Source: Eubacteriales bacterium (GTDB taxonomy: Bacteria > Bacillota > Clostridia > Oscillospirales > CAG-382). From it: a DNA stretch of 64,000 bases. Positions 23,768 through 55,405 of the stretch are shown here, one piece after another. The stretch spans positions 171-64,170 of the forward strand of contig JAZQFS010000042.1 in the NCBI GenBank assembly GCA_045539625.1, written 5' to 3'. Below the pieces are notes generated by a model that had not been told where the DNA came from, ran no database searches, and saw only the letters and a program-made list of their open reading frames with translations. Position 1 is the stretch's first letter. The number at the start of each line of letters is the position of its first letter. Position numbers and translations under genes: made by a program.

Positions 23768-23852
23768 ATTGTTTTTGCACAGTTCAGAGGGCACCGATTT
23801 CTTCGTCCCTGTTTAGGGCAAAAGTAACTGTCAGCTTTCCGGCATATAAAAG

Positions 23853-23886: not shown

Positions 23887-23917
23887 AAAAACATATTATT
23901 TTGTCACAGTTTTATAC

Positions 23918-29695: not shown

Positions 29696-29921
29696 TTACG
29701 AAAAAAAGCTCTGACTCGGTTGAATCGAAGCTTTGTGTTTTATTATGTTGGAAAGTGGTGTGGCGGAGCACTTGGAGATTCTGCGGAGGATATTGCGGTA
29801 TCGGTCATAATGTCTTATTGTTCCTTCTCTCAAATTCCGATGTCTGCGGTACTCAAGGTACTTATCACAGCCTTCCTCAAAAGTGATAGCTCTGGCTTCT
29901 GACATTTGTAATTTTTTTCAT
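29696..29921 (-). pseudogene. tyrosine-recombinase (phage-integrase family) N-terminal stub, frameshifted and truncated
   Basis: ...AITFEEGCDKYLEYRRHRNLREGTIRHYDRY... matches the SAM-like N-terminal pattern of site-specific integrases and the second stub at 54132..54245. The upstream ATG (29921, MKKITN) is out of frame. No catalytic domain follows. Confidence 0.5.
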
Positions 29922-29951
29922 TTTAAAATCCCTTTCAAACAGACAAAAAAA

Positions 29952-29995
29952 GTTAGACACATCATAGGAATAAATTCCAAAATGATGTGTCCAAC
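29952..29995. terminator. long hairpin between the GGGtGRT 3' fragment and the integrase stub (left copy)
   Basis: GTTAGACACATCA-n18-TGATGTGTCCAAC, a 13-bp stem with one A-C mismatch. It is the counterpart of 54276..54318. Confidence 0.5.
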
Positions 29996-30061
29996 AAAAA
30001 AAATATACTATTTTAATGTCAAGAGATTTTAAAAAGTTGTAAAAACCTTGATATTACGTGA

Positions 30062-30420
30062 TTACTTGCTTGCTTCTTCAACCGCAACAGCCACTGCAAC
30101 TGTAGCACCAACCATGGGGTTGTTACCTGCGCCGATAAGTCCCATCATTTCTATATGAGCGGGAACGGAGGAAGAACCTGCGAACTGAGCGTCGCCGTGC
30201 ATTCTACCCATAGTATCTGTCATACCGTAGGAAGCAGGACCTGCAGCTATGTTATCGGGGTGAAGTGTACGTCCTGTACCGCCGCCGAAAAGGTAACCAC
30301 CAATCATTCCGCCTTCAAGTGAAAGGGATATTTTTTCTTCAACGCTGCCCTTTTCGTTTTGTGCCACGGTTATAGTGTACCGCAGGCGTAGAATATATTA
30401 TCTTGTTGGATGCAGTTCAT
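30062..30420 (-). pseudogene. chimeric pseudogene: 5' end of an MBL-fold gene (homolog of 21123..22754) fused to the 3' end of a GGGtGRT gene (homolog of 54407..55405)
   Basis: From ATG 30420: MNCIQQDNIFYACGT, then a 1-nt deletion (frameshift), then ..VAQNEKG|SVEEKISLSLEGGMIGGYLFGGG|TGRTLHPDNIAAGPASYG...VAVAVEEASK*. An internal deletion at NEKG|SVEEK removes ~54 codons relative to the full gene. The fusion point is CCGCCGCC (30279-30286), which is present in both parents. About 45 nt of the MBL upstream region are also duplicated. Confidence 0.75.
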
Positions 30421-30480
30421 ATCATTCACCTCGTATGATGGTATTATAGCATTTTATGGAAGGAATGTCAATTATGAGCA

Positions 30481-30512
30481 AAAAAAAGAGCAATACGTTT
30501 TTTGTATCGCTC
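30481..30512 (-). terminator. rho-independent terminator at the end of the EPS operon
   Basis: Minus strand: GAGCGATAC-n7-GTATTGCTC followed by TTTTTTT, 20 nt after the EAL gene stop (30533). Confidence 0.6.
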
Positions 30513-30532
30513 TCAGTAAACATTTCAAGTAT

Positions 30533-31453
30533 TTAATACTTCTCGATAAAAGACTCGCACTCTTCAAGAGGAAGGGGTTTAGAATAGTACCACCCCTGAA
30601 TAAAATCGCATTTAGACTTAGATACGAGGTCATTCTGTTCCTCTGTTTCAACACCTTCACAGATAACTGACAAATTAAGGTTATGGGCAAGTGCAATAAT
30701 ACCTGCGAACAGCTCCTTACCCCGCTGAGTTCCCGTTTTAAGAAGAATATCTCTGTCAATCTTAACTATATTTATGGGATAATCGCACAGATTTGCAAGA
30801 GAGGTATATCCGCTTCCAAGGTCATCAAGATAAATCTTAAATCCAAGCTCACGGCAAAGTCTGACATTTTTCTTAGCCGTTTCTCTATCCTTTTCTATTG
30901 CATCCTCTGTAATTTCAATGGCAAGCTTTGATTTATCAAAATCGTAGCTTTCTGATATAGCCTTCAGTTTATCAATACAATCTTCTTCAGAAAGTGTTAT
31001 CCGTGTAAAGTTACAGGAAATTGTAATATCCTTATACTCGGTATCCTTCCATTTTTCAAGCTGACGGCAGGCAAGGTCAAACATATAGAAATCGTGCTGA
31101 CTGATAAGTCCTGATGTTTCCATATGTCCGATATAATTACCCGGTCCCAAGATTCCCTTTTTAGGGTTATCCCATCTTGAAAGAGCTTCGGCAGAAACAA
31201 TTCTTTTTGTTTTATTATCCACAACAAACTGCAAGTACATCTTGAATTCATTGTTTCGGATTCCCTCCAAGATACTTTCTGCAGCATCGTTATCTTCGGT
31301 TTTGCCTGCATTATCGGCATTGTTCTCCTCAGACGGATTGATATTTTCAAAGCTTCTTTTTTCAATTCGTTTTATGCGAAAAAGTAACGATACGACAACA
31401 GCAGACTGCACAAAAAACACTAATATGAGTATAGTAAGAATTAACTCCTCCAT
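30533..31453 (-). CDS. membrane-anchored EAL-domain c-di-GMP phosphodiesterase
   Basis: One N-terminal TM segment. EAL signature residues are present: SAEALSRW, CNFT, EITE, DDLGSGYTSL, KIDR, EGVETEE, QGWYYSKP. Confidence 0.85.
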   Translation of the reverse strand: MEELILTILILVFFVQSAVVVSLLFRIKRIEKRSFENINPSEENNADNAGKTEDNDAAESILEGIRNNEFKMYLQFVVDNKTKRIVSAEALSRWDNPKKGILGPGNYIGHMETSGLISQHDFYMFDLACRQLEKWKDTEYKDITISCNFTRITLSEEDCIDKLKAISESYDFDKSKLAIEITEDAIEKDRETAKKNVRLCRELGFKIYLDDLGSGYTSLANLCDYPINIVKIDRDILLKTGTQRGKELFAGIIALAHNLNLSVICEGVETEEQNDLVSKSKCDFIQGWYYSKPLPLEECESFIEKY

Positions 31454-31500
31454 TTTCTGTACACCTCCAATTTTAATATATTATTTATACTTTCCAAATG

Positions 31501-32427
31501 CTATTGCTTCTTTTCTGCACTGTTTACACTGGAAGATATGATATATCTGGGTCTTCCCTTTATTTCTTCGTAAATCCGTGCAATATAGTAGCCGATTATA
31601 CCAAGACTTATCATAATTATACTACCGATAAAAATAGTGATTATGATTACCGTTGTCATACCTTCAAGTGCTCTGCCGATTATTTTATCAATCAGTGCCC
31701 ACACGCCGAAGATGACCGATATTGCAAGCATCACAACACCGAGACCCGTTACTATCTGCATTGGTGCAGTTGAAAACGAGGAAATATTGGAAACCGCATA
31801 CTTTATAAGCTTCCACGTTGACCACTTTGACTCGCCGTCAACTCGTTCTTCAACATCATATTCTACAGTAGCTGTTTTATAGCCAACCCAATAGGACAAT
31901 GCTCTGAAGAAGCCTCTTTCAGGCATACTGTTAATAACATCAACCACTTTTCTGTCAAGCAGCTTAAAGTCAGAGGAGTTTGCCATATCAAAGCCTGCCA
32001 TACGGCTGATTACAGAATAGAACATTTTTGCTGCTATTCCGTGAAGCATTTTTTCCCGTCCTCGGCTGCTTTTTATTCCCTCAACAACCTCATATCCCTG
32101 TTCCCACAGGCGGTACATCTCCACAATTTTCTTCACAGGGTGCTGAAGATCGCAGTCTATTACCACGGCACAGTCGCCTTTTACTTTGGAAAGACCTGCG
32201 GTTATGGCAGACTCTTTCCCGAAATTTCTTGAAAAATGAAGTCCCGAAACATTTTCTGCCTCTTTTGACAGTTCTGTTATCATTTCAAAGGTTTTATCCT
32301 GTGAACCGTCGTCAACAAAAATAATTTCGCAATCAATATTATTTTCCAAAAGGAGATTATGTATTTCGGAATATGCACGTTTTATACATTTTTCCTCATT
32401 ATAGGCGGGAATAATTACGGATAGCAT
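31501..32427 (-). CDS. GT2 polyprenyl-phosphate hexosyltransferase, GtrB/ArnC-like (two C-terminal TM helices)
   Basis: MLSVIIPAYNEEKCI...IIFVDDGSQDKT...VIDCDLQHP plus a C-terminal membrane hairpin, which is the GtrB-type architecture. Confidence 0.85.
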   Translation of the reverse strand: MLSVIIPAYNEEKCIKRAYSEIHNLLLENNIDCEIIFVDDGSQDKTFEMITELSKEAENVSGLHFSRNFGKESAITAGLSKVKGDCAVVIDCDLQHPVKKIVEMYRLWEQGYEVVEGIKSSRGREKMLHGIAAKMFYSVISRMAGFDMANSSDFKLLDRKVVDVINSMPERGFFRALSYWVGYKTATVEYDVEERVDGESKWSTWKLIKYAVSNISSFSTAPMQIVTGLGVVMLAISVIFGVWALIDKIIGRALEGMTTVIIITIFIGSIIMISLGIIGYYIARIYEEIKGRPRYIISSSVNSAEKKQ

Positions 32428-32436
32428 TTAATCACC

Positions 32437-33822
32437 TTACTGTTTTTCAAATAATGTTTCAAGCTTTGTGACAGGCATGGGACGGTAAAAATAATACCCC
32501 TGAAGCATATCACAGCCTGCTTCAACAACCGTTTTTCTGTGTTCCTCGGTTTCTATGCCTTCGCACAGCGTTTTAAAGCCAAGGTCATGGGCGGTGTTGA
32601 TAATATTTTTAAGAATCACAAATCCCGTTTTATTTATTGAATTCTGGGATATTGATTTATCAATTTTTACGATGTTAATGTCAAAGTCGGTAAGATCGCC
32701 AAAGCTTGTATATCCTTTGCCGAAATCGTCCAAGAGTATGCGCATGCCTTTTTCCCTCAGACGTTTAAGATTCTTTGTCATCACCGATTTTTCGTCATCA
32801 TTAAGGTCTTTATCCTCAAGAATTTCAACTGCAATACAAGAATAATCAACTCCGTATTTATCGACTATTCCCATAATACGGTCTGCAAGCTCCATATCGC
32901 AAAGAGTAAATCTTGAAAAGTTAATGGTATACACATACTTTGCACGTTTTGCTTTATCGCTTGATATCCATTTACAGTTTTTCTCAAAGATATAGTAATC
33001 GAATCTTTCATTAAGTCCCACGTTGTTAACCGCAGAAAGGAAATGCCGGGGAGACAGCACGCCTTCGGTTTCGGAGTTTAATCTTGACAAAACCTCAGCA
33101 CCTATAATCTTACCTGATTTTGCATCTATTATAGGTTGATACTCAAGAAAGAATCTGTTATTATCAATTTCGCTTTGAATATTGTTTTCAATTTTGATTT
33201 TTCTTTCAAAAGCCTTACCGCTTGTGTTATCCCACTGACAATGAAGCACGTCTTTATCCTCAGCCATACTGCAAGCCTGTTTTGCTCTTGACAGGGCGGT
33301 TTTGAAGTTAACCTCATTTGAGCTTGTGACATGGTATCCGAAGTTTACACGAACAGCATTTACTGCACCGTGTTTAACAAAGGCTTCGTTTATTTCCTCC
33401 ATACACTTATCTATGCAAGCTTCTGTTTTATCCGCCTCAAGATAGGTCAAAGCAACAAAGTTTTCACTTCCGTAAATTGATATCTCGCCGTCTGCCTTAA
33501 GGCTCAAATGGCTGAAAAGTATCTTTTTGATACGTTCATACATTCTTGATGCCTTTGATTCGGAATACAGTCTTTTCATACTGTCGAAAGAAACCGACAC
33601 ATATACAATACACCTTGTATTTCGAAGTGATGCCGCTTTCTCAAAATCGTTTTCTATTTTTCCTATACCGCAAAAGCTCTTTTCAGAAGTGCCTTTTGCA
33701 GTTTTTACGGATTTAAAAGTGAAGTACAGTCCCACAAGTCCCATTGCTATAAAAATCAAAACCAGTATAGTCAATATTACATAGGGAAATTGAAAAATCC
33801 GTGATTCAAAAAATTTCATCAT
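32437..33822 (-). CDS. membrane-anchored degenerate-GGDEF + EAL protein
   Basis: TM segment, then a GGDEF-fold region with YGSENF in place of GGDEF. The EAL domain has an EVL variant (GAEVLSRL) and intact INFS, EILED, DDFGKGYTSF, KIDK, EGIETEE and QGYYFYRP motifs. Confidence 0.8.
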   Translation of the reverse strand: MMKFFESRIFQFPYVILTILVLIFIAMGLVGLYFTFKSVKTAKGTSEKSFCGIGKIENDFEKAASLRNTRCIVYVSVSFDSMKRLYSESKASRMYERIKKILFSHLSLKADGEISIYGSENFVALTYLEADKTEACIDKCMEEINEAFVKHGAVNAVRVNFGYHVTSSNEVNFKTALSRAKQACSMAEDKDVLHCQWDNTSGKAFERKIKIENNIQSEIDNNRFFLEYQPIIDAKSGKIIGAEVLSRLNSETEGVLSPRHFLSAVNNVGLNERFDYYIFEKNCKWISSDKAKRAKYVYTINFSRFTLCDMELADRIMGIVDKYGVDYSCIAVEILEDKDLNDDEKSVMTKNLKRLREKGMRILLDDFGKGYTSFGDLTDFDINIVKIDKSISQNSINKTGFVILKNIINTAHDLGFKTLCEGIETEEHRKTVVEAGCDMLQGYYFYRPMPVTKLETLFEKQ

Positions 33823-33836
33823 TTATGCTCCCGATA

Positions 33837-34901
33837 TCAGTTTTCAAAAATTGGGAATTCATCTGTTCCCGCTGTTCTGCGAAGACCTCTTGCCTTTGCT
33901 GCGGCACAGCACTTTTCAATGTCTTTTTTTGCACTGTGCTTTCTTCTGACAATATCTCTTACAACAAACAAAGGATTGAATTTTAGCATTGCCCTTAAAA
34001 CATCCTTCTTTGATACGCCGCTTCTCTTATATTCTGCAAGAATTTCAATAAGCACATAGTTTACCGTTTCTTTATCTATTTTACCACTGCTTATTCTTTT
34101 GAACCATTTTGCAAATTCAAGATATTTTGAAACATCCGCCTTTTCTTTAAAATAAACACCGCTTATATAAAACTCTTTCATGCTCTCATCCATAGAAGAA
34201 GCAAGAGTACCATAATACTTATCCTGTATTTTAAGCACTTCGGTATGCTGTCTTTCAAGGGTTGTGCTTGTAATCTGCTTATCATGGAGGCGGTATATGA
34301 GAAGACATTCGTCAAGAATCTGCATTTTCTGTGAGTTCATTGCCATTCTTGTCCACAGTTCAAGGTCCTCGGTACAGGTAAGAGTAGTATCATAATTGTA
34401 TTTTTTCATAACCTCAGCTTTTGCAATAACACCGGGATGAAGAATGGGATTTGCCACAAAAAGCATTGCACGAACCGCTCTATCGTCGCACCGTCCGCCT
34501 GCTCCGCCTGACATATAAACTCCGTTTTTTACAGTCATAAATCTGCAGGAGGACAAAGCTACATCATTATGCTCCTCCATAAACTTAAACTGCTTTTCAA
34601 GTCTTTCGGGAAGACAGATATCATCGGCATCCATTCTTGCTATGTACTTTCCTTCAGAAAGAGAAATTGCCTTATTAAGGGATGTGGGAAGTCTTAGATT
34701 AACTTCATTATTATGTACCTTTATTCTTTCATCACTTTTGGACAGTTCACAAAGAATTTCAGCTGTAGAGTCTGTGGAGCAGTCGTTTATTATCACAAGC
34801 TCCCAGTCCTTAAAGGTCTGGTTTATGACGCTTTCTACAGCTTCTTTCAGATATGCTTCGCCGTTATATACGCTCATTATTACTGAAATTGCGGGTTTCA
34901 T
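33837..34901 (-). CDS. family 2 glycosyltransferase
   Basis: ISVIMSVYNGEAYLKEAVESVINQTFKDWELVIINDCSTDST...MDADD. Confidence 0.85.
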   Translation of the reverse strand: MKPAISVIMSVYNGEAYLKEAVESVINQTFKDWELVIINDCSTDSTAEILCELSKSDERIKVHNNEVNLRLPTSLNKAISLSEGKYIARMDADDICLPERLEKQFKFMEEHNDVALSSCRFMTVKNGVYMSGGAGGRCDDRAVRAMLFVANPILHPGVIAKAEVMKKYNYDTTLTCTEDLELWTRMAMNSQKMQILDECLLIYRLHDKQITSTTLERQHTEVLKIQDKYYGTLASSMDESMKEFYISGVYFKEKADVSKYLEFAKWFKRISSGKIDKETVNYVLIEILAEYKRSGVSKKDVLRAMLKFNPLFVVRDIVRRKHSAKKDIEKCCAAAKARGLRRTAGTDEFPIFEN

Positions 34902-34911
34902 GATGGGTGCT

Positions 34912-35931
34912 TCATCCTTTCTTGAGGACTCTTTTTATATTCTTACACATATTGAGAAAGTAAAACGCTGTTCTATAGCATTTTTTCTGCATTAAAAACA
35001 CGGTTATTTTACTTTTACGTGATATACTCTCAAATCTCGCTTTAGAGATTCTCTCTCCATGTATGGAGTTTTTGATATTTTCTTTAAGCGGCTTTATGCT
35101 TTTAAAATGGTTACCTTCTGCTGCCGATGCAAGTATTGCAAAGCACATAAAGCAGGAATAACGGCAAATTTGTTCTTCAAAATCAGGAATCACTGTGAAG
35201 TCATTTTTACCTATTTCATTTATCACGTTTTCCACAAGGAAAATCTGTTTAGTATTAAACTCCTTTGACAGTGAATCTTCTCTTACTGTATACAAATAAG
35301 TTTCTTTTTTACTGATATACACGCTTTTTGCCGCAAGATAGCAAGGCACAACACAGCAAAGGTCTTCGCCAAGAGAGATTGATTCACTGACACTAAGCTG
35401 AATTGGTGTGAGAAGTTCTCTTCTTACAGCCTTTCCCGACAAATAGTAGGAAACGTGATTCATATTCTTATCCATTAAAAGTCTCGGGAAAATATACTGC
35501 TGTATTCCCTTCTCGTCATAAAAGCCTTCTTCAAGACCGTCATTGGTGACATTTACCATTTTTTCGCCTTTTACCCATCTATATGAGAAGGATACAATAT
35601 CACATTTTGTTTCGCATATTTTATTATACGCACATTCAAGTGTATCGTTTTCTATAAGGTCATCGGAATCAAGGTTAAAAACGTATTCACCCACAGCTTC
35701 CTTTATCCCCGCTCTTCTTGCACTTGCAAGACCGCCGTTGCTCTTATGAACAACCTTTACACGGCTATCCTTTTCTTTATAGCTGTCACAGATTGCAGGA
35801 CAGTTATCGGGAGAGCCGTCATCCACAAGAACAAGTTCAAAATCTGAAAAGCTCTGTTTCAACACACTGTCAACACAAGCCTTCAAGTACTTTTCCACCT
35901 TATATACCGGAACTATTACCGAAAAAAACAT
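34912..35931 (-). CDS. family 2 glycosyltransferase
   Basis: FSVIVPVYKVEKYLKACVDSVLKQSFSDFELVLVDDGSPDN...LDSDD. Confidence 0.85.
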   Translation of the reverse strand: MFFSVIVPVYKVEKYLKACVDSVLKQSFSDFELVLVDDGSPDNCPAICDSYKEKDSRVKVVHKSNGGLASARRAGIKEAVGEYVFNLDSDDLIENDTLECAYNKICETKCDIVSFSYRWVKGEKMVNVTNDGLEEGFYDEKGIQQYIFPRLLMDKNMNHVSYYLSGKAVRRELLTPIQLSVSESISLGEDLCCVVPCYLAAKSVYISKKETYLYTVREDSLSKEFNTKQIFLVENVINEIGKNDFTVIPDFEEQICRYSCFMCFAILASAAEGNHFKSIKPLKENIKNSIHGERISKARFESISRKSKITVFLMQKKCYRTAFYFLNMCKNIKRVLKKG

Positions 35932-35940
35932 AGACTACTC

Positions 35941-37008
35941 CTATTTGCTTCTTAATTCAACCAGTAATTTCATAAGAAAATACAATCTGCACTTCATACA
36001 GTATGCAAACACTCTTTGTTTAAGCGGAAGTGTTGCAATGGGATACATTTTCAGAGCTTTTATACTTTGCTTATGGGTACAAATCTTTTTAAGCATTTTC
36101 CCTGTTTCAGAAAACTTGATACCGTTAACTTTACCGTACATTATTTCCTGTGTACAGATAACTCTGCACATAGCCTGCCAAAATCTGTTTATATAGATAC
36201 CGTATTCTTTTTCATCAATGTCGTTTTTAAAATTCTTTTCAACTTCACTCACAAAAACAAGGCTCTTTTCAAATCTATCCTGTTTACGGGATTTTGAAAT
36301 TGAATCTTCATTTCGGCAGTAATTGTAATATGCACCGTCTATTCCCGTAGCCTTACTTATATTGGAAATATAATCAATCATGAAAAGTGCATCCTCCGAA
36401 AGCATTTCACGTTCAGATTTGAAGGTTATTTTATTCTTCTTTATTATCTCAGTTCTGAAAAGATTTTTCCAGATACTCATGCCGTATTTACTGTCGTCGT
36501 CATCCCCCGGCAATGCACCTACAATACCCATTCTCAGTTTTTTCAGCATTTCGGGAGTATCAAAATGAGTATCCTTATCGAAGTAGCTTTTCCTGTCGCA
36601 GCCACCCTTTTCGCTGAACATATTTCCGTCAACAAATATTACCCCGGACATTACAAGGTCACTGTCATACTGTACTGCCTTATTATACAGAGTCTTAAAC
36701 ATACAAGGCTCTGCATAATCGTCGGAATCGCAAAAGCCGACGTATTCTCCGCTGACAAGCTCAAGTCCTGCATTACGTGCATAGCCTGCACCCTCATTCA
36801 CCTTATGTATAACCTTGATTCGGGAATCTTCCTTCGCCATTTTATTACACATTTCAAGTGAAGAATCGGTTGACGAATCATCAACAAGGATTATTTCAAT
36901 ATCACAAAGTGTCTGATTCTGCAACGAGCTTACACATCTTTCAAGATATTTTTCAGCATTGTACACGGGAACAACAATACTGACCTTAGGCTGTGACAAG
37001 TATCTCAC
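35941..37008 (-). CDS. family 2 glycosyltransferase
   Basis: VSIVVPVYNAEKYLERCVSSLQNQTLCDIEIILVDDSSTDSS...CDSDD. Confidence 0.85.
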   Translation of the reverse strand: MRYLSQPKVSIVVPVYNAEKYLERCVSSLQNQTLCDIEIILVDDSSTDSSLEMCNKMAKEDSRIKVIHKVNEGAGYARNAGLELVSGEYVGFCDSDDYAEPCMFKTLYNKAVQYDSDLVMSGVIFVDGNMFSEKGGCDRKSYFDKDTHFDTPEMLKKLRMGIVGALPGDDDDSKYGMSIWKNLFRTEIIKKNKITFKSEREMLSEDALFMIDYISNISKATGIDGAYYNYCRNEDSISKSRKQDRFEKSLVFVSEVEKNFKNDIDEKEYGIYINRFWQAMCRVICTQEIMYGKVNGIKFSETGKMLKKICTHKQSIKALKMYPIATLPLKQRVFAYCMKCRLYFLMKLLVELRSK

Positions 37009-39529: not shown

Positions 39530-39550
39530 TCCCTGATTCTTGTTTATGTA

Positions 39551-41419: not shown

Positions 41420-41425
41420 CCTCCT

Positions 41426-42781: not shown

Positions 42782-42800
42782 ATTACATCCCCTCTCTAAA

Positions 42801-44048: not shown

Positions 44049-44050
44049 TT

Positions 44051-45169: not shown

Positions 45170-45190
45170 TTTAATCACTCCAAAATTCCA

Positions 45191-45871: not shown

Positions 45872-46740
45872 TATTCTTTAACACTTCTTTCTGATATATT
45901 TCGTACACATTCAAATTCGGTTTTCCGTCCCGAGGAAAAATAAAAATCCTTAAATACAACGTTTTTATCTGCCAACTGATATTCAAGCTTATCTATATAA
46001 CCGGGATGGAACAGAACCTCAACGTCTTTTCCTTGTTTTTCGGCAAGCTTTTCGTATTTCGGCAAAAGCTTTTTTACACGTTTTTCATCCATTTTTCCCG
46101 AAAACAGTATTCCGAAAAAGTACGCTGTTTTTATCTCATAATCTTTTGTATGCTTTTTATTGCACAGCCAAAGAAATTTCAATAGCAACTGTTTTATAAC
46201 ATTCACTGCGTTATAGGTAAAATACAGTGACTGTGTTGTAACAAAAGGCAACATCGGTTCTGCAGGTATTCTCACATAGTCCGCCTGTATTTTCTCATCC
46301 TTCAGCACTCTTACCAATGCCCTGAACACCGCAGGTATCATGTGTGTATGCTGATGGCTGTCGATGCAAAACGGAATATCTTTTGGCAAAATGCTTTGCC
46401 AATATCTGACCTGAGCCAAAATTTCTTTATACAGCTGTTCTTCAAGCTTTTTACCGCACAGGAAATTCAGCCTGAAAAGTCCTCCGAAGCGGTGCTTCAG
46501 ATTACCGTCCTTATGGGCAATCAGGTCTATTTCCTCAGGATTTGCCATGCACTTTCCTTCAACAAGATTAAGATGAAGTGAAAGTCTTACATTTTTTATT
46601 TCAGTAAGCTCCTTCAAATCAACTTCACCGAAATTTGGAAATACGCTTATTTTATTCAGTACCCCGTCACGAAGGCACTTTTTTATATTTGTCGATGTAT
46701 CTCTGCAAAGCCCGAAATCATCGGCACAGTAATAAATCAC
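45871..46740 (-). CDS. ChbG/YdjC-family carbohydrate deacetylase-like protein
   Basis: N-terminal MIYYCADDFGL and the mid-protein HQHTHM motif, at the right size for the YdjC family. Confidence 0.75.
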   Translation of the reverse strand: MIYYCADDFGLCRDTSTNIKKCLRDGVLNKISVFPNFGEVDLKELTEIKNVRLSLHLNLVEGKCMANPEEIDLIAHKDGNLKHRFGGLFRLNFLCGKKLEEQLYKEILAQVRYWQSILPKDIPFCIDSHQHTHMIPAVFRALVRVLKDEKIQADYVRIPAEPMLPFVTTQSLYFTYNAVNVIKQLLLKFLWLCNKKHTKDYEIKTAYFFGILFSGKMDEKRVKKLLPKYEKLAEKQGKDVEVLFHPGYIDKLEYQLADKNVVFKDFYFSSGRKTEFECVRNISERSVKE

Positions 46741-48308: not shown

Positions 48309-49027
48309 TTGAATTTATGCAAAAATTTTCCGTACAGTTTATCGTACATTTTAACACCCACAATACGCTTTAAAAACAATGTGCGTTTTGATGTTTTGGA
48401 TGTCCACGAAGCACAAAAATGATGTATTGAATAGGTATTCTTTGTTATCTTTTTCTTTCCCGTATAATATTTCATAGGGCAAAGATAGTCTTCGGGAAGC
48501 ATGTGTATTCCCATAAAAACCTGATTCTGATTGGTTATATCCAAACCAAGCTTTTCCATGGTTTTGGTATTTCTGTCGGGACAGGGAGTCATATCAAAGC
48601 TTCCGTCCTCAAGGACAAAAGGGATATGGTCATAATCTGCCAAAAGTGCACCCACCAGCTCATTGCCCTTTTCACAGCCAAAGCCCAACCCCGTTGAAAT
48701 AACGCCGTTATCGTCAAAGCCCATATAGCCGGATTCTTTTACAAGCTCATCAATGGGTTTTATAATCTCAACATCTGTATCAAGGTATATTCCACCTTGG
48801 TCATAAAGTACCTTCAATCGTACGTAGTCACTGACAAATGCCCACTTTTTTGCTTCATAGGCTTGTCTTGCGTATTTATTATGACTGATGTCAAAGTTAT
48901 CCTCGTTATGGCATTCTATTTCATAATCGGGGCAATACTTCTGCCAGCTTTTTATACATTTTTGTGCAAGCGCGGGCATTTTGCCTCTACCGAACCAGCA
49001 GTAGTGTATTACCTTTGGAATACTCAT
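48293..49027 (-). CDS. family 32-type glycosyltransferase (OCH1/capsular sugar transferase, DXD)
   Basis: IPKVIHYCWFGRGKMP...WAFVSDYVRLKVLYDQGGIYLDTDVE. Confidence 0.75.
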   Translation of the reverse strand: MSIPKVIHYCWFGRGKMPALAQKCIKSWQKYCPDYEIECHNEDNFDISHNKYARQAYEAKKWAFVSDYVRLKVLYDQGGIYLDTDVEIIKPIDELVKESGYMGFDDNGVISTGLGFGCEKGNELVGALLADYDHIPFVLEDGSFDMTPCPDRNTKTMEKLGLDITNQNQVFMGIHMLPEDYLCPMKYYTGKKKITKNTYSIHHFCASWTSKTSKRTLFLKRIVGVKMYDKLYGKFLHKFKWLEW

Positions 49028-50529
49028 TTACTTTTCTTCCCCCTATAAAGCTCAAGAGCTGTTTTAAATGCTTTTCTGTTAAATACGAAATTTACAAGTA
49101 AATACAATCCCACAATCCATACGGCATTTGCCATTCCGTAAAGCAACAGCTTAAAAAACGGAGTATTACTGAAGGAGTCAACAAAGAACACCGACATAAT
49201 TACGGCAAAAACCGCTGTATTTACAAGGATTATTCTATATGTACAAAACGCACTTCTGCCCAGAATCTTTTTATTTGAGTGGTAAACCGTCACAACCGAA
49301 CGGTACACAAGTGCCGCAATTGTTCCCACAATAGCACCGCAGATACCCATATAGTAAATTGCGGCAACTGACACTGTTATATTTATAATCATTTCCCAAA
49401 GGGCGTGGCGGCGTGTCTTCTGAAAATCGCCTGAGTATTCAATAATTCCGTTTATGGGAAGTTTTGAAGCGGCAATCAAATTCATAACAACAAAAAGAAT
49501 CAGAAGAAGCGGATTTGTATACTGAGCATCCTCTATTCCGCCTGTATAAATCTGAATGAGCGGCAGAAGAAAAACTGCCATAAGAGTATAAACAATAAAG
49601 TTTGCGGTTATATAAAAGGTTTCGTAAACATTAAACAGCTTATCAAACTTTTCTCTGTCGGTATTGAACATCTGACCCAGTGCAAAGGTAAAAGAAGAAA
49701 CAACACTTGTTATAAAGTTCTGCACCTGTGAAAAGAAGATGTTATATATTGCATAAATACTTACCGCTTTAAAATCGCAGAGAACGGAAATAAGTATTAC
49801 ATCGGTATTATTGAACACCATTCCCGAAAGCTGATGCACAAGCACCGAGTTTTTCTGTGATATTGCTTGAAAATCAGGCTTTGCCTTAAGGTCCAGCCAC
49901 GTATATCTGCGTTTTGCGTAAAAATAAAGAAAGCCAAGCTGAAAAAGTGCAATAACGCAATACACAAGCTGTATGAGAACAAGGCTGTCTGTGAGAAACA
50001 GCACCAATATCTTACCTGCATTTGATGCAAGCTGTAAAAATGTTTCCGAGTTATTTATTACATATTTTCTGCCGTCAACCTCCATGAGGATTCTGTACTT
50101 TGACTGCACAAAATAGTTGAAAAGCGAAGGGATTGCATTTAATATTACCATAACAAACAGCACATTACTGTCTATTGATGTGGGAACAAAATATGCGTAC
50201 ACCACCCCAATTGCAAGGACTATTGCAGCATATATTACGCCTGTTCTTTTATAATAGGAATGGGTTGCTGAAAGAACGGCACTTGCACTTTCATAATCCT
50301 TCTCGCCTATTCTCTTATAAAGCGCCTGAGTTGTGGCAAGTCCTACGCCCGCTTCAAGAAGGCACAGGTATGTAAAAATCTGCTTTATTGTGGAAAGTAC
50401 ACCGTTTACCTCTGAGCCGAAGTTTTCAAGATACAGTCTCGGAAGCAGAAAGCTCAAGGATATGAGAACTACCTGATACACAAGTGACGATATCAGGTTA
50501 TGCTTTATTCTTGAATCCTTAAAAGCCAA
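49024..50529 (-). CDS. Wzx-type oligosaccharide flippase (MOP superfamily)
   Basis: About 12-14 TM segments. N-terminus NLISSLVYQVVLISLSFLLPRLYLENFGSEVNGV is typical of polysaccharide biosynthesis proteins. Confidence 0.75.
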   Translation of the reverse strand: MAFKDSRIKHNLISSLVYQVVLISLSFLLPRLYLENFGSEVNGVLSTIKQIFTYLCLLEAGVGLATTQALYKRIGEKDYESASAVLSATHSYYKRTGVIYAAIVLAIGVVYAYFVPTSIDSNVLFVMVILNAIPSLFNYFVQSKYRILMEVDGRKYVINNSETFLQLASNAGKILVLFLTDSLVLIQLVYCVIALFQLGFLYFYAKRRYTWLDLKAKPDFQAISQKNSVLVHQLSGMVFNNTDVILISVLCDFKAVSIYAIYNIFFSQVQNFITSVVSSFTFALGQMFNTDREKFDKLFNVYETFYITANFIVYTLMAVFLLPLIQIYTGGIEDAQYTNPLLLILFVVMNLIAASKLPINGIIEYSGDFQKTRRHALWEMIINITVSVAAIYYMGICGAIVGTIAALVYRSVVTVYHSNKKILGRSAFCTYRIILVNTAVFAVIMSVFFVDSFSNTPFFKLLLYGMANAVWIVGLYLLVNFVFNRKAFKTALELYRGKKSK

Positions 50530-50572
50530 GTTCTCACCTCCGAAAAGTACTTACTGCGTTTTACCGAAAACA

Positions 50573-51115
50573 TCACACACGGTTATCAATATATCCCTCG
50601 GTGGCATTTTCTCTTTCAATTATTCGTGCAGGATTTCCCACAACGATGCTATGGTCGGGTACATCAAAATTAACATAGGCAAGAGGTGCTATAAGAACAT
50701 CGCTGCCAATCTTTACGTTTCCCACAACAACCGCATTGGTTCCTATCCAGCAATTATCCAAAATCGTGGGAGCACCTTTTCTTTTGCCACGGTTTTCAGC
50801 ACCGATTGTAACACCTGTTCCAAGATTCACATTCTTACCCAAAACCGCATTTGGATTTATAATAACTCTTCCCGTATGTCCGATATAAAATCCTTCTCCG
50901 ATTTTTGTGCGTGCAGGAATCTGTATATGTGTCTTTGCCGAAAGGTGTCTAAGTCTCAACATATAGTAAAGCTTAAGAGGCAAAAAAGAGCATTTATTTG
51001 CCTTTCTGAACATTGCTATGTATTTAATTTCCAAGGGACGGAACACTCTTTTAAGGAAAGGCTCGCCTTTTTCACCGTAGTAGCGGTAAAGGTCTTTTTT
51101 GAAGATACTATTCAT
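50573..51115 (-). CDS. hexapeptide-repeat O-acetyltransferase (serine acetyltransferase-like)
   Basis: Left-handed beta-helix repeats (IGEGFYIGHTGRVIINPNAVLGKNVNLGTGVTIG...IGTNAVVVGNVKIGSDVLIAP). Confidence 0.8.
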   Translation of the reverse strand: MNSIFKKDLYRYYGEKGEPFLKRVFRPLEIKYIAMFRKANKCSFLPLKLYYMLRLRHLSAKTHIQIPARTKIGEGFYIGHTGRVIINPNAVLGKNVNLGTGVTIGAENRGKRKGAPTILDNCWIGTNAVVVGNVKIGSDVLIAPLAYVNFDVPDHSIVVGNPARIIERENATEGYIDNRV

Positions 51116-51124
51116 AATTCACAC

Positions 51125-51541
51125 TCATTTTTCTTTGGACTCAAGAAAAATCTTTCTTGTTACAAAATTGTACACAGGCACAATTACCATGGCAAGGAAT
51201 TTGATTACAAGGTAGTAAATCTTCGTAAAGCTTACGCCTACCCACAAAATGAATTGGTTAAGGCAAAGTCCACCGATGCTGAGAAGCACAAACAGCACAA
51301 ATTCACGAAGCTTACTTTGATTTTTGCTTTTAAACACAAAGCTCATACTTAATATGTAATTAACCACAACAGATGCAGTAAAGGAAAGTGCCGAAGCGAC
51401 AAGAACGTCAATATGCAAAAGCTCTTTCAGTGCAACAAGCACCCCTACATCCACAACTGCTGCAATAACGCCCACTACCGCAAACTTTATCAGCTGAAGA
51501 ATCACGTACAAACCCTCCGTTATTCTCTTGCGAATACCCAA
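51125..51541 (-). CDS. GtrA family membrane protein (lipid-linked sugar translocase-like)
   Basis: 138 aa, 4 TM. KFAVVGVIAAVVDVGVLVAL...SFTASVVVNYILSMSFVFKSK is the GtrA signature. Confidence 0.8.
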   Translation of the reverse strand: MGIRKRITEGLYVILQLIKFAVVGVIAAVVDVGVLVALKELLHIDVLVASALSFTASVVVNYILSMSFVFKSKNQSKLREFVLFVLLSIGGLCLNQFILWVGVSFTKIYYLVIKFLAMVIVPVYNFVTRKIFLESKEK

Positions 51542-53817
51542 AGAGTATCCTTTACATCACCGCTGTTATCATCAAGATTATGTACACTGAGAATTACTGT
51601 TTCTCCGTTTACCTTTTTATATGTAATTGACACGGCTTTACCGTCAAGCAACTGACGTTTTATTGCATCAATGTTCAGGAAAGTGGAAACTGCACGGTGA
51701 AAATCGGGATGTACATAGTCACTGATATACTTTTTCAGCACATTTGAAAAGCTTGTATCAGTTTCACCGCAGCCCAGATATGAAGGCATAAGAATTCCCT
51801 GTGCACTGTCGGTATCAAGAGACACTCTGTATATGCCGTTATAGTGTTCTTTAAGCACGGAAATCATTGTATCAATTTCTCTGATACCTGTCTTCATCTG
51901 GCTGAAATTCGTATTTGAATCATCAGAAACCGAAGGCTGTTCCTTATTCTGATAGTACAAAGCCTTTGCTTCATACATTCTTATCTCAGCTTCACGAACC
52001 ATTTCTTCGCAGTTGATATTACAGCTTCTGAAGGACATACCTATTGCAACAGTATAGCCTTTGGGTTTAAGCTGCTCTACAAAGGTCTCAATATTCTGTT
52101 TGACAACGTCATGGGATATTTTCTTTGCAAATACAAGAAATTCATCACCGCCCATGCGGTAAATGCTCTGTCCGTAGAACACTTCCTTCAAGGAGTTTGC
52201 AATAAAGATAAGCATTTCGTCACCTGCGGCGTGACCGTACTTATTATTTCTGATATGAAGCTCATTTACGTCAATATAAATGCACGAAAAATCTTCAGGA
52301 TTTTCTTCATCAAATACAAGAATATCCTTTTTATAAGCAACCCTGTTCATTGCTCCCGTAAGAGAGTCGGTTGTTGCGGCAAGTTCAGTTTTATTAAGGT
52401 GTTTCTTATTATAAATAGCAATTGAGAAGCATACTGCAACATCGCCGATAAGCTTTCTTATAAAGATGCTCTTTTTAGGGTTAATTGTACCGAGAATACT
52501 TACATGATTATTTTTATCAGAGATAATTGCAAAGGATATATCTCTGATATCATGCCCGGTAAGAAATTCGTAAAGTTCGGGATTTGTCTTTGCAAGATGT
52601 CCGTTAGGGAGAATCTGCATAAAGCCTGTCACAAGGCTGTCTGTATGCACATTTGCCGCATATCTGAACAACTCGCCTATTAAATATGTTTTTTCCTCGC
52701 CCTTTATCTCTTTTTCCTTTAACGAGGGTTTGATATAGTTATAGTACTCTCCATCGGTATCGGCGAAAAAGCAGGAACGTGCACTTGAAAATTCCTTTAT
52801 TCTCTTAAGAGCCGTATTTATATTTTCATGGTTTTGGTTAATCTCAAGGAGAAGGTGTCTTATTGAAGAAGACTCGGAATTCAACTTTGCCCTTTTCTTT
52901 TCATTCTTAAGTATAAGTTCAAGATATACAGCCATAATGAGAATAATCACTACAAAAACTATCATAACACTATATGAAATCTTATGTGTTTCCTCAAAAA
53001 CCTGTGTTTCATAACGGGCAAGCATGATTCCCCAGTCAAAATCTTCAATGGTAGAATAATGGATATACAAATCCTCACCGGTAATGATTGACTTAAATGA
53101 AGAAAATCCCTTATCGCCTTGTGCCATAGCTTCATAAGAATAGTCATCATTATAAACTCTATCCTTAAAGTCTGACAGTTCACCCGGTTTATCATCAAGG
53201 GTATCAATAACAAATTTTCCTGTTTCTTTATCATATACAAAAAGCTGTGCATTAAGCTCTTTTGCCATAGCATTATACTTTTCGCCTATAACATCAAGCT
53301 GAATTACACCGTAAAGAATTCCAACCGTTTCACCGTTTACTTTAATGGGCACAGCACTTCTGACAATATCTTTATCTGCGCCTGTAAGGTCGGGAATTCT
53401 GCCGCTTATATACTCTCCTCTTGCCGCTTCGTCTTGAAAGGAAATAATACCATTAAGATCAATTTCTCCCTTTTTGGTAACAAAAGTATTATCCGGATTA
53501 AGAATACCGATATTTGATATGAGACCTATGGGCTTGAAGGACTCAAACATAATATTATAGCTTTCCCCGTTAGTATGAAGCTTTGAGGCAAAGTTTGCCA
53601 TTGTTACAAGATTTTCTCTATCAGACTCCAGCTGCAGTTCAAGATGATCCTTAATTTGCTTTGTCTGGATGTGGAGCATCTCATAGGCATCATTTTCTGC
53701 CTTTATATAAAAAGACGTAACCATTGCCAAGAAAACGGCACATATCAATACCGTTGTAACAACGGTATAAACAATGTTATTTTGTCTTTGTTTTTTTCTT
53801 TCGTAGGTTATTGCCAA
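51520..53817 (-). CDS. sensor diguanylate cyclase: TM - Cache-like extracytoplasmic domain - TM - GAF/PAS-like - GGDEF (intact) - ~125-aa C-terminal domain of unknown function
   Basis: DSLTGAMNRVAYKKD...NNKYGHAAGDEMLIFIANSL...IYRMGGDEFLVFA (intact GGDEF; no RxxD I-site seen). Two TM segments flank a ~250-aa domain. TTG start at 53817. Confidence 0.85.
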   Translation of the reverse strand: MAITYERKKQRQNNIVYTVVTTVLICAVFLAMVTSFYIKAENDAYEMLHIQTKQIKDHLELQLESDRENLVTMANFASKLHTNGESYNIMFESFKPIGLISNIGILNPDNTFVTKKGEIDLNGIISFQDEAARGEYISGRIPDLTGADKDIVRSAVPIKVNGETVGILYGVIQLDVIGEKYNAMAKELNAQLFVYDKETGKFVIDTLDDKPGELSDFKDRVYNDDYSYEAMAQGDKGFSSFKSIITGEDLYIHYSTIEDFDWGIMLARYETQVFEETHKISYSVMIVFVVIILIMAVYLELILKNEKKRAKLNSESSSIRHLLLEINQNHENINTALKRIKEFSSARSCFFADTDGEYYNYIKPSLKEKEIKGEEKTYLIGELFRYAANVHTDSLVTGFMQILPNGHLAKTNPELYEFLTGHDIRDISFAIISDKNNHVSILGTINPKKSIFIRKLIGDVAVCFSIAIYNKKHLNKTELAATTDSLTGAMNRVAYKKDILVFDEENPEDFSCIYIDVNELHIRNNKYGHAAGDEMLIFIANSLKEVFYGQSIYRMGGDEFLVFAKKISHDVVKQNIETFVEQLKPKGYTVAIGMSFRSCNINCEEMVREAEIRMYEAKALYYQNKEQPSVSDDSNTNFSQMKTGIREIDTMISVLKEHYNGIYRVSLDTDSAQGILMPSYLGCGETDTSFSNVLKKYISDYVHPDFHRAVSTFLNIDAIKRQLLDGKAVSITYKKVNGETVILSVHNLDDNSGDVKDTLWVFARE

Positions 53818-53921
53818 CTACATACATCTTCTTTCATAGGACAGTAATTTTAACATAAAATATCATCCGTCTATACACCATTTAACATCACAAATGTACA
53901 GTCCACCTGATTTTATACTCC

Positions 53922-53950
53922 AGTATATCATATAATTACAAAAAAATCAA
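53922..53950 (-). promoter_or_regulatory. candidate promoter for the EPS operon
   Basis: Minus strand: TTGATT (53950-53945), 17-nt spacer, TATACT (53927-53922), about 105 nt upstream of the cyclase start. Confidence 0.35.
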
Positions 53951-54131
53951 TAAACAAAGAACATTTTTTTAATAAACAAACATAAAACAATAGCTATTTT
54001 TACCGTTTTTTTACAAGTTTTGAAAGGACACTATAAAAGGGTGGATCTTATACAATGACAAAAGAAAAGGACGGAATATCCGCCCAAAGTACTTTATTTA
54101 CTTGTACAAATCTGATTGATTTTATCCTGCA

Positions 54132-54245
54132 TTAATGTCTTATAGTTCCATCTCTTAAATTTCTCTGTCTGCAGTACTCCAGATACTTATCGCAACCTTC
54201 TTTGAAAGTAAGCGTTGCACCTTTCGCCATCTTAATCTTTTTCAT
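54132..54245 (-). pseudogene. tyrosine-recombinase N-terminal stub (37 codons then stop)
   Basis: MKKIKMAKGATLTFKEGCDKYLEYCRQRNLRDGTIRH* with AAGGAG RBS. Homologous to 29696..29921. No catalytic domain. Confidence 0.5.
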
Positions 54246-54275
54246 CGAAAAATTCTCCTTATATGCGAAAAAATA

Positions 54276-54318
54276 TTGGACACATCACCGTGCAAAAATA
54301 CACAAATGATGTGTCCAA
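54276..54318 (-). terminator. terminator hairpin after the GGGtGRT operon
   Basis: TTGGACACATCA-n19-TGATGTGTCCAA, a perfect 12-bp stem, followed on the minus strand by TATTTTTT. Confidence 0.55.
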
Positions 54319-54406
54319 CTCTTTTATTATTAAATTTCAGTAATCGGATTTTTTCGATGCTTTAAGGAAATTTCAAAAAGTTCCAAAAGCCTTGAAAATC
54401 AAGGAA

Positions 54407-55405
54407 TTACTTGCTTGCTTCTTCAACAGCAACAGCCACAGCAACTGTAGCACCAACCATGGGGTTGTTGCCCATGCCGATGAGACCCATCATTTCTACG
54501 TGAGCAGGAACTGAGGAAGAACCTGCGAACTGAGCGTCGCCGTGCATTCTACCCATAGTATCTGTCATACCGTAGGAAGCAGGACCTGCAGCCATGTTAT
54601 CGGGGTGAAGTGTACGTCCTGTACCGCCGCCTGATGCAACGGAGAAGTACTGCTTACCGTTTTCTGTACACCACTTCTTGTAGGTACCTGCAACGGGGTG
54701 CTGGAATCTTGTGGGGTTGGTGGAGTTACCTGTGATGGATACACCAACGTTTTCAAGTCTCATGATTGCAACGCCTTCGGGAACGCTGTCAGCACCGTAG
54801 CACTTAACGTCAGCTCTGGGACCCTTGGAGTAAGGAGTTTCAGAAATAACTGTAACTTCTTCTGTAGCAGGATCGAACTGTGTCTTAACATAGGTAAAGC
54901 CGTTGATTCTGGAAATGATGAATGCAGCGTCCTTGCCGAGACCGTTAAGAATAACCTTAAGAGGCTTTGTTCTTACCTTGTTTGCGTTGAGAGCGATTTT
55001 GATAGCGCCTTCAGCAGCAGCAAAGGATTCGTGACCTGCCAGGAAGCAGAAGCACTCTGTTTCTTCGGAGAGAAGCATCTTACCGAGGTTACCGTGACCG
55101 AGACCAACCTTTCTGTTTTCTGCAACGGAACCGTTAATACAGAAAGCCTGAAGACCGATACCGATAGCAGCAGCAGCGTCAGCAGCCTTTGTGCAACCCT
55201 TCTTGATTGCGATAGCTGCACCTACTGTGTATGCCCAAACTGCGTTTTCGAAGCAGATAGGCTGTGTTTCTCTTACGATTTTGTCGCAGTCGATGCCCTT
55301 TGCAAGGGTGATTTCCTTACATTCTTCAACGGACTTAATGCCGTATTCAGCAAGAACTGCATTGATTTTGTCAATTCTTCTTTCGTAGCTTTCAAATAAT
55401 GCCAT
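54407..55405 (-). CDS. GGGtGRT family protein (function unknown)
   Basis: Contains the eponymous motif ...VASGGGTGRTLHPDN... AAGGAGG RBS. Confidence 0.85.
   Translation of the reverse strand: MALFESYERRIDKINAVLAEYGIKSVEECKEITLAKGIDCDKIVRETQPICFENAVWAYTVGAAIAIKKGCTKAADAAAAIGIGLQAFCINGSVAENRKVGLGHGNLGKMLLSEETECFCFLAGHESFAAAEGAIKIALNANKVRTKPLKVILNGLGKDAAFIISRINGFTYVKTQFDPATEEVTVISETPYSKGPRADVKCYGADSVPEGVAIMRLENVGVSITGNSTNPTRFQHPVAGTYKKWCTENGKQYFSVASGGGTGRTLHPDNMAAGPASYGMTDTMGRMHGDAQFAGSSSVPAHVEMMGLIGMGNNPMVGATVAVAVAVEEASK

Follow-up and report, generated by a model that had tools for sequence, protein, structure and literature searches.

Two surface modules between the GGGtGRT and MBL genes

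We analyzed a 64,000-nucleotide (nt) stretch of DNA, hereafter the window, from an uncultured gut Clostridia genome (Eubacteriales bacterium, assembly GCA_045539625.1, contig JAZQFS010000042.1), probably a metagenome-assembled genome (MAG). Read along the minus strand, the window holds the conserved PTAC / NifU-like / GGGtGRT operon, of which GGGtGRT is the last gene, then an exopolysaccharide (EPS) operon, then a module encoding a giant surface protein, an XRE-type helix-turn-helix (HTH) protein and a YpsA/SLOG protein, and finally a gene for a metallo-beta-lactamase (MBL)-fold protein (Table 1). The GC content is 0.37-0.40 over most of the EPS interval (maximum 0.42 near 47-48 kb) and 0.42-0.47 in the flanks. 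Related loci are labelled L001-L107; among the searches that supplied them, a scan of GTDB species representatives with the GGGtGRT protein gave 80 loci of at most 92% amino-acid identity from Acutalibacteraceae, Oscillospiraceae and other Clostridia MAGs. These comparisons support that the EPS operon and the surface-protein module are stacked head to tail in the window and are alternatives at one variable site in relatives.

Table 1. Features of the stacked locus, with positions in the window (aa, amino acids; ORF, open reading frame)
Feature	Position	Strand	Evidence or remark
GGGtGRT gene, intact, 332 aa	54407..55405	-	Pfam PF14057, E=5e-195, profile positions 1-327/327
Repeat copy B (outer): GGGtGRT 3' 226 nt, spacer, hairpin, first 37 integrase codons	54133..54631	-	
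Hairpin B, outer stem GGACACATCA / TGATGTGTCC, flanked by A-tract and T-tract, like a bidirectional terminator	54278..54316	.	
Integrase stub B, 37 codons then stop	54132..54245	-	tblastn with L026, L030, L072 and L014 integrases: 59-76% over residues 1-37
Linker, 47-48 nt, from integrase breakpoint to shared EPS block	54086..54132	-	only in window and L107
Terminator-like hairpin, left edge of shared EPS block	54069..54085	-	homology boundary in L101, L103, L105, L106
EPS operon, about 20 genes	30533..53817	-	first gene dCache-GGDEF protein (765 aa), last EAL protein (306 aa)
Terminator after EAL gene, right edge of EPS block as shared with L001	30486..30514	-	L001 homology ends at 30489
Donor-type MBL promoter, TTGACA-17-TATAAT with TG, 12/12 matches	30443..30471	-	all but one base as in L097 upstream of intact MBL
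MBL' pseudogene fragment, donor type	30287..30420	-	97.9% to L097 MBL, 79% to resident-type MBL
Illegitimate joint, 10-nt microhomology GGCGGCGGTA	30277..30286	-	common to MBL (FGGG) and GGGtGRT (SGGGTGRT)
Repeat copy A (inner): GGGtGRT' 226 nt, spacer, hairpin, integrase 5' end	29808..30286	-	
Hairpin A	29955..29992	.	L001 and L094 homology to copy A begins exactly at 29992
Integrase stub A, 69-codon ORF	29696..29905	-	homologous to copy B and full-length integrases only to 29808
Second module: 1856-aa Big_2/Flg_new surface protein, XRE-type HTH, YpsA/SLOG protein	22860..29488	-	Pfam
XRE-type HTH gene	23403..23726	+	
Resident intact MBL-fold gene, 543 aa, conserved right flank	21123..22754	-	Pfam Lactamase_B

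A gapless search between 27 and 57 kb detected one large direct repeat, 30061-30286 against 54406-54631 (226 nt, 94%). Gapped alignment and self-BLAST extended this repeat to 29808-30286 against 54133-54631 (501 columns, 78.6% identity, E~1e-115), and except for matches of the scar described below the window holds no other large repeat. Identity between the two copies is 94.2% over the GGGtGRT 3' end, 48% in the spacer, 77% in the hairpin, 61% from the hairpin to the ATG and 74.5% in the stub, with perfect runs of 80 nt and 38 nt separated by one mismatch. An earlier reading of this DNA, made from its letters and ORFs (the sequence-only reading), had described direct repeats made of an integrase stub, a hairpin and the 3' end of GGGtGRT, and all three components are confirmed; its left end, 29696, is the end of the stub A ORF, the repeated part stopping at 29808. 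A search of the repeat region against Rfam gave a chance snoRNA match only (E=0.77).

The outer GGGtGRT gene has been kept at full length (332 aa). Compared with the gene of the conspecific L082, it is 99.6% identical over window 54632-55405 and 96% over its last 226 nt. The inner ORF, 30062..30367(-), matches the Pfam GGGtGRT profile at positions 256-327 only, and over the same 226 nt it is only 92% identical to the L082 gene, which makes copy A appear to fit less well as the resident type. The repeats are not an assembly duplication, a possibility that the sequence-only reading had allowed for, because the copies are 79% identical, the scar carries lesions of its own and the left junction recurs in L107, an independent assembly. 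That reading had also proposed that recombination between the repeats could delete the EPS island. The perfect runs of 80 and 38 nt make such a deletion physically plausible and should suffice for a predicted RecA-dependent deletion at low frequency. In the predicted product, which was not observed, GGGtGRT would stay intact as a hybrid gene differing by three conservative changes at its C-terminus, and hairpin A and the surface module would come next.

Pfam searches of the 24-kb EPS interval identified Bac_transf (E=4e-65), Wzy_C (E=5e-8), four GT2 and two GT4 glycosyltransferases, GtrA, GtrII, YdjC, a hexapeptide transferase, two GGDEF and two EAL domains. A Wzy-dependent polysaccharide locus would combine an initiating sugar transferase, a Wzy-type polymerase and glycosyltransferases with a flippase. 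The same searches matched no Wzx-type flippase in the operon, no mobility gene in the EPS block and nothing at all in the large ORFs 41426..42826 and 49024..50529. Four of the encoded proteins are devoted to cyclic di-GMP (c-di-GMP) turnover, namely a dCache-GGDEF protein of 765 aa, a GGDEF protein of 622 aa and EAL proteins of 461 and 306 aa. The operon is 98-99.6% identical in L001, L097, L098, L100-L103 and L105-L107 despite diverged flanks, and the block keeps 98-99% identity even where the GGGtGRT operons of the lineages compared have diverged to 83%. At E<=1e-50 the first gene of the EPS operon has 943 homologues, and L104, from a more distant species, carries the operon at 74% identity with gene order kept in another context. 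From these comparisons we take the EPS operon to be a conserved cassette whose movement between lineages is recent. The description of this operon as integrase cargo in the sequence-only reading could not be upheld for a conserved operon with that many homologues of its first gene, synteny in L104 and no mobility genes. Exact-sequence look-ups of the 306-aa EAL, SLOG and hexapeptide-transferase proteins found none on record.

The MBL'::GGGtGRT' joint and the alleles of relatives

The inner GGGtGRT' copy adjoins a fragment of an MBL gene. Self-BLAST matched the scar at 30270-30355 to the resident MBL gene at 22439-22526 (85%) and at 30347-30455 to 22680-22787 (77%). Together with an alignment of three sequences, namely the scar, GGGtGRT and the MBL gene of L097, these matches confirm the MBL'::GGGtGRT' fusion that had been proposed from the sequence alone. 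The start codon of MBL' lies at 30420. The scar derives from an EPS-only allele, since MBL' shows 97.9% identity with the MBL gene of L097 against 79% with the resident type, and L097 carries the intact donor-type gene. Relative to that gene MBL' has lost 1 nt after codon 15 and 162 nt between 9-nt repeats GAAAAGGGC. The longer deletion (54 codons, in frame; 30347-30355 against L097 10076-10237) looks like replication slippage, and the MBL N-terminal region around it holds two FGGG-ending repeat units.

The joint lies in a 10-nt microhomology, GGCGGCGGTA, found within TTCGGCGGCGGTATTG of MBL and TCAGGCGGCGGTACAGG of GGGtGRT and supplied by the glycine codons behind GGGtGRT's name. The scar reads TTCGGCGGCGGTA joined to CAGGACGT, where the L097 MBL gene reads TTCGGCGGCGGTATTGAAG and GGGtGRT reads TCAGGCGGCGGTACAGGACG, with 10 nt common to them, and donor-type MBL codon ~101 is thereby fused in frame to GGGtGRT codon ~258. 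At this joint MBL' comes before GGGtGRT', which is the reverse of the chromosomal order; the permutation therefore indicates the joint of a circle or of a tandem duplication and not an attachment site. The scar promoter (30443-30471) reads into the chimeric 101-codon MBL'-GGGtGRT' ORF (30062..30367) and on toward hairpin A, and both ORF and promoter are probably inert.

A joint of this kind could be an assembly chimera, in which contigs from a strain with the EPS allele and from a second, co-occurring strain with the surface allele had been wrongly merged. The source is probably a MAG, and related contigs do break at these junctions, with L094 starting at the hairpin and L100/L102 55 nt before the GGDEF gene. 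However, the 10 nt common at the joint are too little for a k-mer graph join, the 1-nt and 162-nt deletions are private to MBL' and absent from the intact allele, and repeats that are 79% identical would neither collapse nor mis-join. We therefore consider a chimera highly improbable.

Relatives carry each module at this site. L097/L098 (JGI), found through an MBL protein search, are 99.3% identical to window 40420-30347, from EPS through the EAL gene and the MBL promoter, and there the EPS operon leads straight on to an intact MBL gene, the surface module being absent, which establishes that an EPS-only allele exists. L107 (GCA_045541355.1) is colinear with window 57269-41520 and has a left junction in common with it, including the hairpin, the 37-aa stub, the 48-nt linker and EPS. 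Identity between the two is 83% over the GGGtGRT operon, 88-90% over GGGtGRT, 91% over hairpin and stub, 100% over the linker and 98.4-99.5% over EPS. The linker is absent from L101, L103, L105 and L106, in which homology to the window EPS block starts at 54085. The surface-XRE-SLOG module also stands upstream of MBL in the conspecific L001 and L093-L096 (MBL 98% identical), in the order hairpin-stub-surface-XRE-SLOG-MBL. The upstream junction differs in L001 and L095, where it consists of a 64-87-nt GGGtGRT' remnant and a 293-aa MBL-fold gene; in L001 a GH39 gene follows further upstream with the EPS operon (99% identical) beyond it, and the L095 sequence ends before the GH39 point. L082-L084 encode an identical GGGtGRT protein and cease to match the window precisely at its stop codon, beyond which come a tyrosine integrase gene (492 aa, convergent) and an HTH_17 gene. 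A surface-only allele directly beside GGGtGRT was not recovered among the relatives compared, the L094 contig breaking at the hairpin. The sequence-only reading had placed two alternative cargo modules in tandem in a replacement hotspot between GGGtGRT and MBL, and it is borne out on both counts by L097/L098, with EPS beside an intact MBL gene, and by the alternative contents in L107 and L001/L094.

Another stack is present in L105 (1408-6900), where GGGtGRT is followed by an opposite-strand 828-aa GH20-like gene, a 249-nt GGGtGRT' copy (an 83-aa ORF), XRE, SHOCT and EPS. Remnants of the SHOCT gene were also seen, as its last 18 nt in L101 and a longer 3' piece in L106.

The stub of the conspecific L001, L094 and L095 is a mosaic. 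From the hairpin to about codon 12 it is 92% identical to copy B and 66% to copy A; beyond a sharp switch the closer match is copy A, at 96%, with copy B at 80%.

With moderate confidence, we explain the stack best by a single microhomology joint combined with homologous, Campbell-type integration, a step in which no integrase would have taken part. Both repeats would go back to a single chromosomal block and have diverged since, and this block would be the left flank that the alternative alleles between the GGGtGRT operon and MBL have in common; one allele would be the c-di-GMP-linked EPS operon and the other the giant surface protein with XRE and SLOG. In a first step, a donor segment GGGtGRT'-hairpin-stub-EPS-MBL' would have closed on itself at GGCGGCGGTA, or the donor would already have been tandem-duplicated. 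In a second, this segment would have integrated by a homologous crossover in the repeat block of a resident surface-protein allele, presumably near stub codon 12. An L001-like resident (B left, A right) and a donor with A left and B right would yield both window copies by one crossover. Run in reverse, the homologous event would take out the EPS island, and a hybrid GGGtGRT gene would be left intact. The L001-type stub switches sharply from B to A, as the Campbell route would predict; however, its B-left identity is only 92%, and this strain type also has EPS upstream in another arrangement. This mosaic could be the resident before integration or, equally, the product of the reverse event. In either case, the step between the stacked and unstacked states is recombination within the block.

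Several observations weigh against this explanation. No sampled lineage is close to the donor GGGtGRT'(A)-hairpin(A), the best reaching 92.5% over GGGtGRT' and 86% over 50 nt of the hairpin region. The hairpin and 5' part of the stub in copy B are only 92-94% identical to the conspecific L001/L094, where a resident would be at ~97%. L001-type conspecifics carry EPS upstream of the surface module with another junction, so the history has more steps. Both stubs end their homology at the same nucleotide (29808 / 54133), yet unrelated DNA follows, a coincidence that the model leaves unexplained and only shifts back to the origin of the two alleles. Finally, the MBL'::GGGtGRT' joint has been seen in the window only, without a confirming second assembly or read set.

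The joint would be explained equally well by homology-facilitated illegitimate recombination, which is known from transformation and conjugation (PMC3240628) and has been proposed for stacked type VI secretion system (T6SS) effector-immunity arrays (PMC5361080; PMC3240628). A linear donor, GGGtGRT operon-hairpin-stub B-EPS-MBL', would have been anchored in the GGGtGRT operon, and its free MBL' end joined into the resident GGGtGRT 226 nt before the stop, displacing the resident gene end and the surface module downstream. The only novel joint does lie in the 10-nt microhomology, and an incoming module upstream with a displaced one downstream, behind a 3' gene stub, is the arrangement of V. cholerae T6SS arrays and Rhs loci (PMC5361080). 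Such a one-ended event predicts that copy A is the resident one; yet copy A is 92% identical to L082-L084 and the outer copy 96-99.6%. Furthermore, the hairpin and 5' part of the stub in L001/L094 are B-like and not A-like, so that extra recombination would be needed. We regard this route as unlikely.

The same joint and gene order would also result from an in-situ tandem duplication, by unequal sister-chromosome exchange at GGCGGCGGTA in an EPS-only genome, if the distal copy, from the stub on, had later been replaced by the surface allele through homologous recombination. That such replacement does take place here can be seen from the EPS block, which is 98-99% identical in backgrounds diverged to 83%. 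However, this history needs two large events and not one, and it predicts initially identical copies, where we found a 6% coding and ~35% non-coding difference. It also sits poorly with an outer GGGtGRT gene (L082) and a right flank (L001) that look conspecific next to an MBL' that does not, and we find it improbable.

Integrase remnants and the GGGtGRT 3' end

The stubs were identified as integrase N-termini in the sequence-only reading, and this identification stands. Full-length homologues of 310-312 aa lie in the same position, directly after GGGtGRT and the hairpin and on the same strand, in L014, L026, L030 and L072; they and the stubs begin alike (LTFEEGCxKYLxxCRxRNLREGTIxHY). The stubs align at 59-79% to residues 1-38 of proteins whose Phage_int_SAM_5 domain spans residues 17-103, and tblastn of the full-length integrases covered residues 5-38 in stub A. 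Stub A matched the PHROGs integrase family phrog_1 (E=4.9e-5, residues 4-54) and stub B did so weakly (E=0.16). Pfam found nothing in stub A and only a spurious sub-threshold Phage_BR0599 match in stub B, both stubs being too short. The same 37-aa stub B ORF is called in L107. A protein-database search with stub A returned one match only, a 74-aa stub, which led to the relative L001, and tblastn of stub A against phage genomes gave no match.

The two full-length relatives scanned, those of L026 and L030, carry Phage_integrase and Phage_int_SAM_5 domains (Phage_integrase E=2.5e-31 for L026). Among NCBIfam models the L026 protein scored best against XerA/XerC/XerD, far below their cut-offs (136 bits against 220 for XerA). 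The family occurs at this site with differing cargo in L014, L026, L030 and L072 and is degenerate in L021 and L046. Because its distribution is patchy (about 6 of the 80 species loci) and its cargo variable, this Xer-like protein appears to behave like a mobile-element integrase. Tblastn with the four full-length relatives found no C-terminal integrase sequence and no catalytic domain with the R-H-R-Y residues anywhere in the window, in agreement with the earlier claim that both integrases are reduced to stubs. Since both genes are dead, site-specific excision is excluded. An SSV-type split integrase, with attP inside the integrase gene, was considered and rejected, as neither module has a C-terminal integrase part at its far end.

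Four stubs, namely A, B, the L001-type (~10113) and that of L107 (~9685), lose homology to the full-length genes within 1 nt of each other, after AGACATTA (29808 / 54133 in the window). Beyond this breakpoint the DNA falls into two mutually unrelated types, one in stub A and L001 and the other in stub B and L107. Local alignment of the sequences downstream of the two window stubs scored 24 against 20.8 +/- 2.9 for shuffled sequences, and 45 of 300 shuffles reached 24; the two are therefore unrelated, their score being no better than shuffled. A common breakpoint by chance coincidence is unlikely. The stub A ORF runs 32 codons past the breakpoint, and its tail adds 9 bits to the match with the integrase profile (23.8 bits for the whole ORF, 14.8 bits for the first 32 aa alone). 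For this reason stub A may keep ~54 integrase codons from a different allele; the tail alone had no integrase match, as was likewise true of a matched control segment of a real integrase. The GGGtGRT 3' end, hairpin and 37 integrase codons might form a dedicated docking module and not a passive flank, with the breakpoint after AGACATTA as a specific crossover site at which lineages would exchange unrelated multi-gene cassettes (EPS, surface protein). We consider this a long shot; if true, gut Clostridia would have a chromosomal system of cassette exchange that differs from integrons and from classical att-flanked islands.

In 13 of the 80 species loci the hairpin GGACACATCA...TGATGTGTCC follows GGGtGRT or a copy of this gene. 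Outside the window it was noted in L014, L015, L021, L026, L027 (x2), L028 (x2), L030, L033, L046, L056 (x2), L061, L072 and L107. Its outer stem is nearly invariant, with compensatory changes in 3 of 11 predicted pairs, and the inner sequence is variable and still self-complementary by eye. This conservation exceeds what a plain terminator needs. The hairpin often stands ~30 nt before the start codon of the Xer-like integrase and is often duplicated along with inserted DNA. An integron-like cassette platform was rejected, because the integrase is co-directional and truncated, the modules are multi-gene with ordinary terminators, and the one conserved hairpin stands before the integrase gene instead of bounding every module. 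The homology breakpoints among strains at 54085, 30489 and 29992 coincide with hairpin or terminator edges, where several metagenome contigs also end.

In several species the GGGtGRT 3' end is a genuine attachment site for other integrative elements. Copies of it flank inserted DNA in L027, L046, L049, L052, L056 and L061, with three copies in L027 and L049. Such attachment-type copies (n=10, including the L001 and L095 remnants) take in only the final 54-125 nt of the gene, in most cases 54-90 nt, and 5 of the 10 start near GGTAACAACCC. Three downstream copies (L046 10907-10978; L049 10485-10593 and 12564-12672) share a variant, CCCA(A)GGCT.AAATGACC, that is absent from the local gene, which suggests that they stem from the attP of a related family of mobile elements. 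At the site, L082 (4430-6199), L083, L084 and L046 (7637-11046) have a tyrosine integrase of 492 aa with SAM_3 and Phage_integrase domains, convergent to GGGtGRT and adjoined by an excisionase-like HTH_17 gene in L082 and L083. The last ~10 nt of the L082 GGGtGRT gene use other synonymous codons (GCGTCTAAG against GCAAGCAAG), as if supplied by the element, and the displaced original gene end is seen as a 64-87-nt remnant in L001 (8625-8710) and L095 (143-216).

These elements bear on the origin proposed in the sequence-only reading, in which two integrase-borne islands had been inserted successively at the GGGtGRT 3' end, the repeats being of attL/attR type and the integrases decaying later. 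The intact relatives of the stubs after GGGtGRT and hairpin in four loci with differing cargo, the duplication of the GGGtGRT 3' end around inserts in six loci, in up to three copies, and the 492-aa integrase in L046 and the conspecific L082-L084 all speak for it. The window copies have another structure. The inner one starts at the microhomology joint with donor-type MBL' and no attachment core, and it extends 226 nt from that joint, without attachment-type structure, in contrast to the 54-125 nt of the ten attachment-type copies. The repeat also runs through the hairpin into the integrase gene, unlike an att duplication; the EPS block is a conserved operon without mobility genes, and self-BLAST found no third GGGtGRT' remnant before the resident MBL gene. 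Successive insertion is thus a poor candidate, and the donor-type MBL' observed at the joint refutes it.

On the right flank, the resident MBL gene is 98.3% identical to L001/L094 and 77.9% to L097, and a JGI metagenome scan with the MBL protein found relatives at 26-29% only. The XRE-SLOG segment (22860-23917) is 87% identical to the conspecific L001/L094, next to a surface protein at 97.3% and MBL at 98.3%, and is either a local hypervariable patch or a further small recombination import. WbsX and SLH-domain genes come after MBL, namely those for WbsX, a 747-aa protein and a 1603-aa protein with SLH, Cu_amine_oxidN1 and WbsX-like domains. Over window 12302-20816 these genes differ by 9-22% from L097 and L099, though the EPS DNA is 99% identical, a variation that recalls that of S-layer cassettes. 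Elsewhere, a weak direct repeat (7736-7856 / 17514-17634, 122 nt, 70%) lies inside ORFs 7362..8750 and 17149..19392, which probably share paralogous domains.

Relation to known systems

The locus documents, in uncultured gut Clostridia, two alternative cell-surface cassettes united by a microhomology joint and, on the explanation preferred here, homologous recombination, not by a mobile-element enzyme. The 24-kb EPS operon is 98-99.6% identical across lineages whose neighbouring core genes are only 78-83% identical, which shows that recombination does switch surface polysaccharides in this little-studied family. The 3' end of the abundant, uncharacterised GGGtGRT gene is, together with its hairpin, a multi-lineage hotspot of integration and recombination used by at least two integrase families, which should aid the annotation of islands in Oscillospirales MAGs. 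The feature is real and belongs to ordinary genome plasticity; the processes are known ones, and no current ideas are overturned.

Like the Xer recombinases (XerC/XerD/XerA/XerS), the full-length relatives of the stubs have 310-312 aa and adjoin a conserved inverted repeat, and those of L026 and L030 have SAM-like and catalytic domains; among the Xer proteins, XerS has its gene beside its difSL site. The inverted repeat here does not resemble a dif site, having arms of 10-11 bp with 17-19 nt between them that themselves pair. The locus resembles tandem accretion of islands in that GGGtGRT 3'-end copies flank inserts in L001, L027, L046, L049, L052, L056, L061 and L095. It differs from accretion in that the window repeat extends 0.5 kb into an integrase gene, the inner boundary is an illegitimate MBL joint, and no functional integrase or excisionase is present.

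The pneumococcal cps locus lies between dexB and aliA, and capsule switching there proceeds by homologous recombination in the conserved flanks. As in such capsule and O-antigen switching, the EPS cassette sits between conserved flanks and is 98-99.6% identical while the flanks differ by 3-22%. In capsule switching, however, one cassette replaces another, whereas here both have been kept in tandem through one illegitimately joined end.

The displacement arrays of V. cholerae T6SS and Rhs-CDI loci likewise place an acquired module at a conserved upstream anchor and push the older one downstream with a truncated 3' piece; the novel joint lies in microhomology, and alternative modules occupy the same site in relatives. 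The modules differ, being a 24-kb EPS operon and a surface-protein module here and not toxin-immunity pairs. In contrast to those arrays, the displaced 3' piece of the window departs from the resident type, and the reciprocal mosaic occurs in a conspecific strain. Because of these two features, a circular or duplicated intermediate would fit the stack better than a one-ended join.

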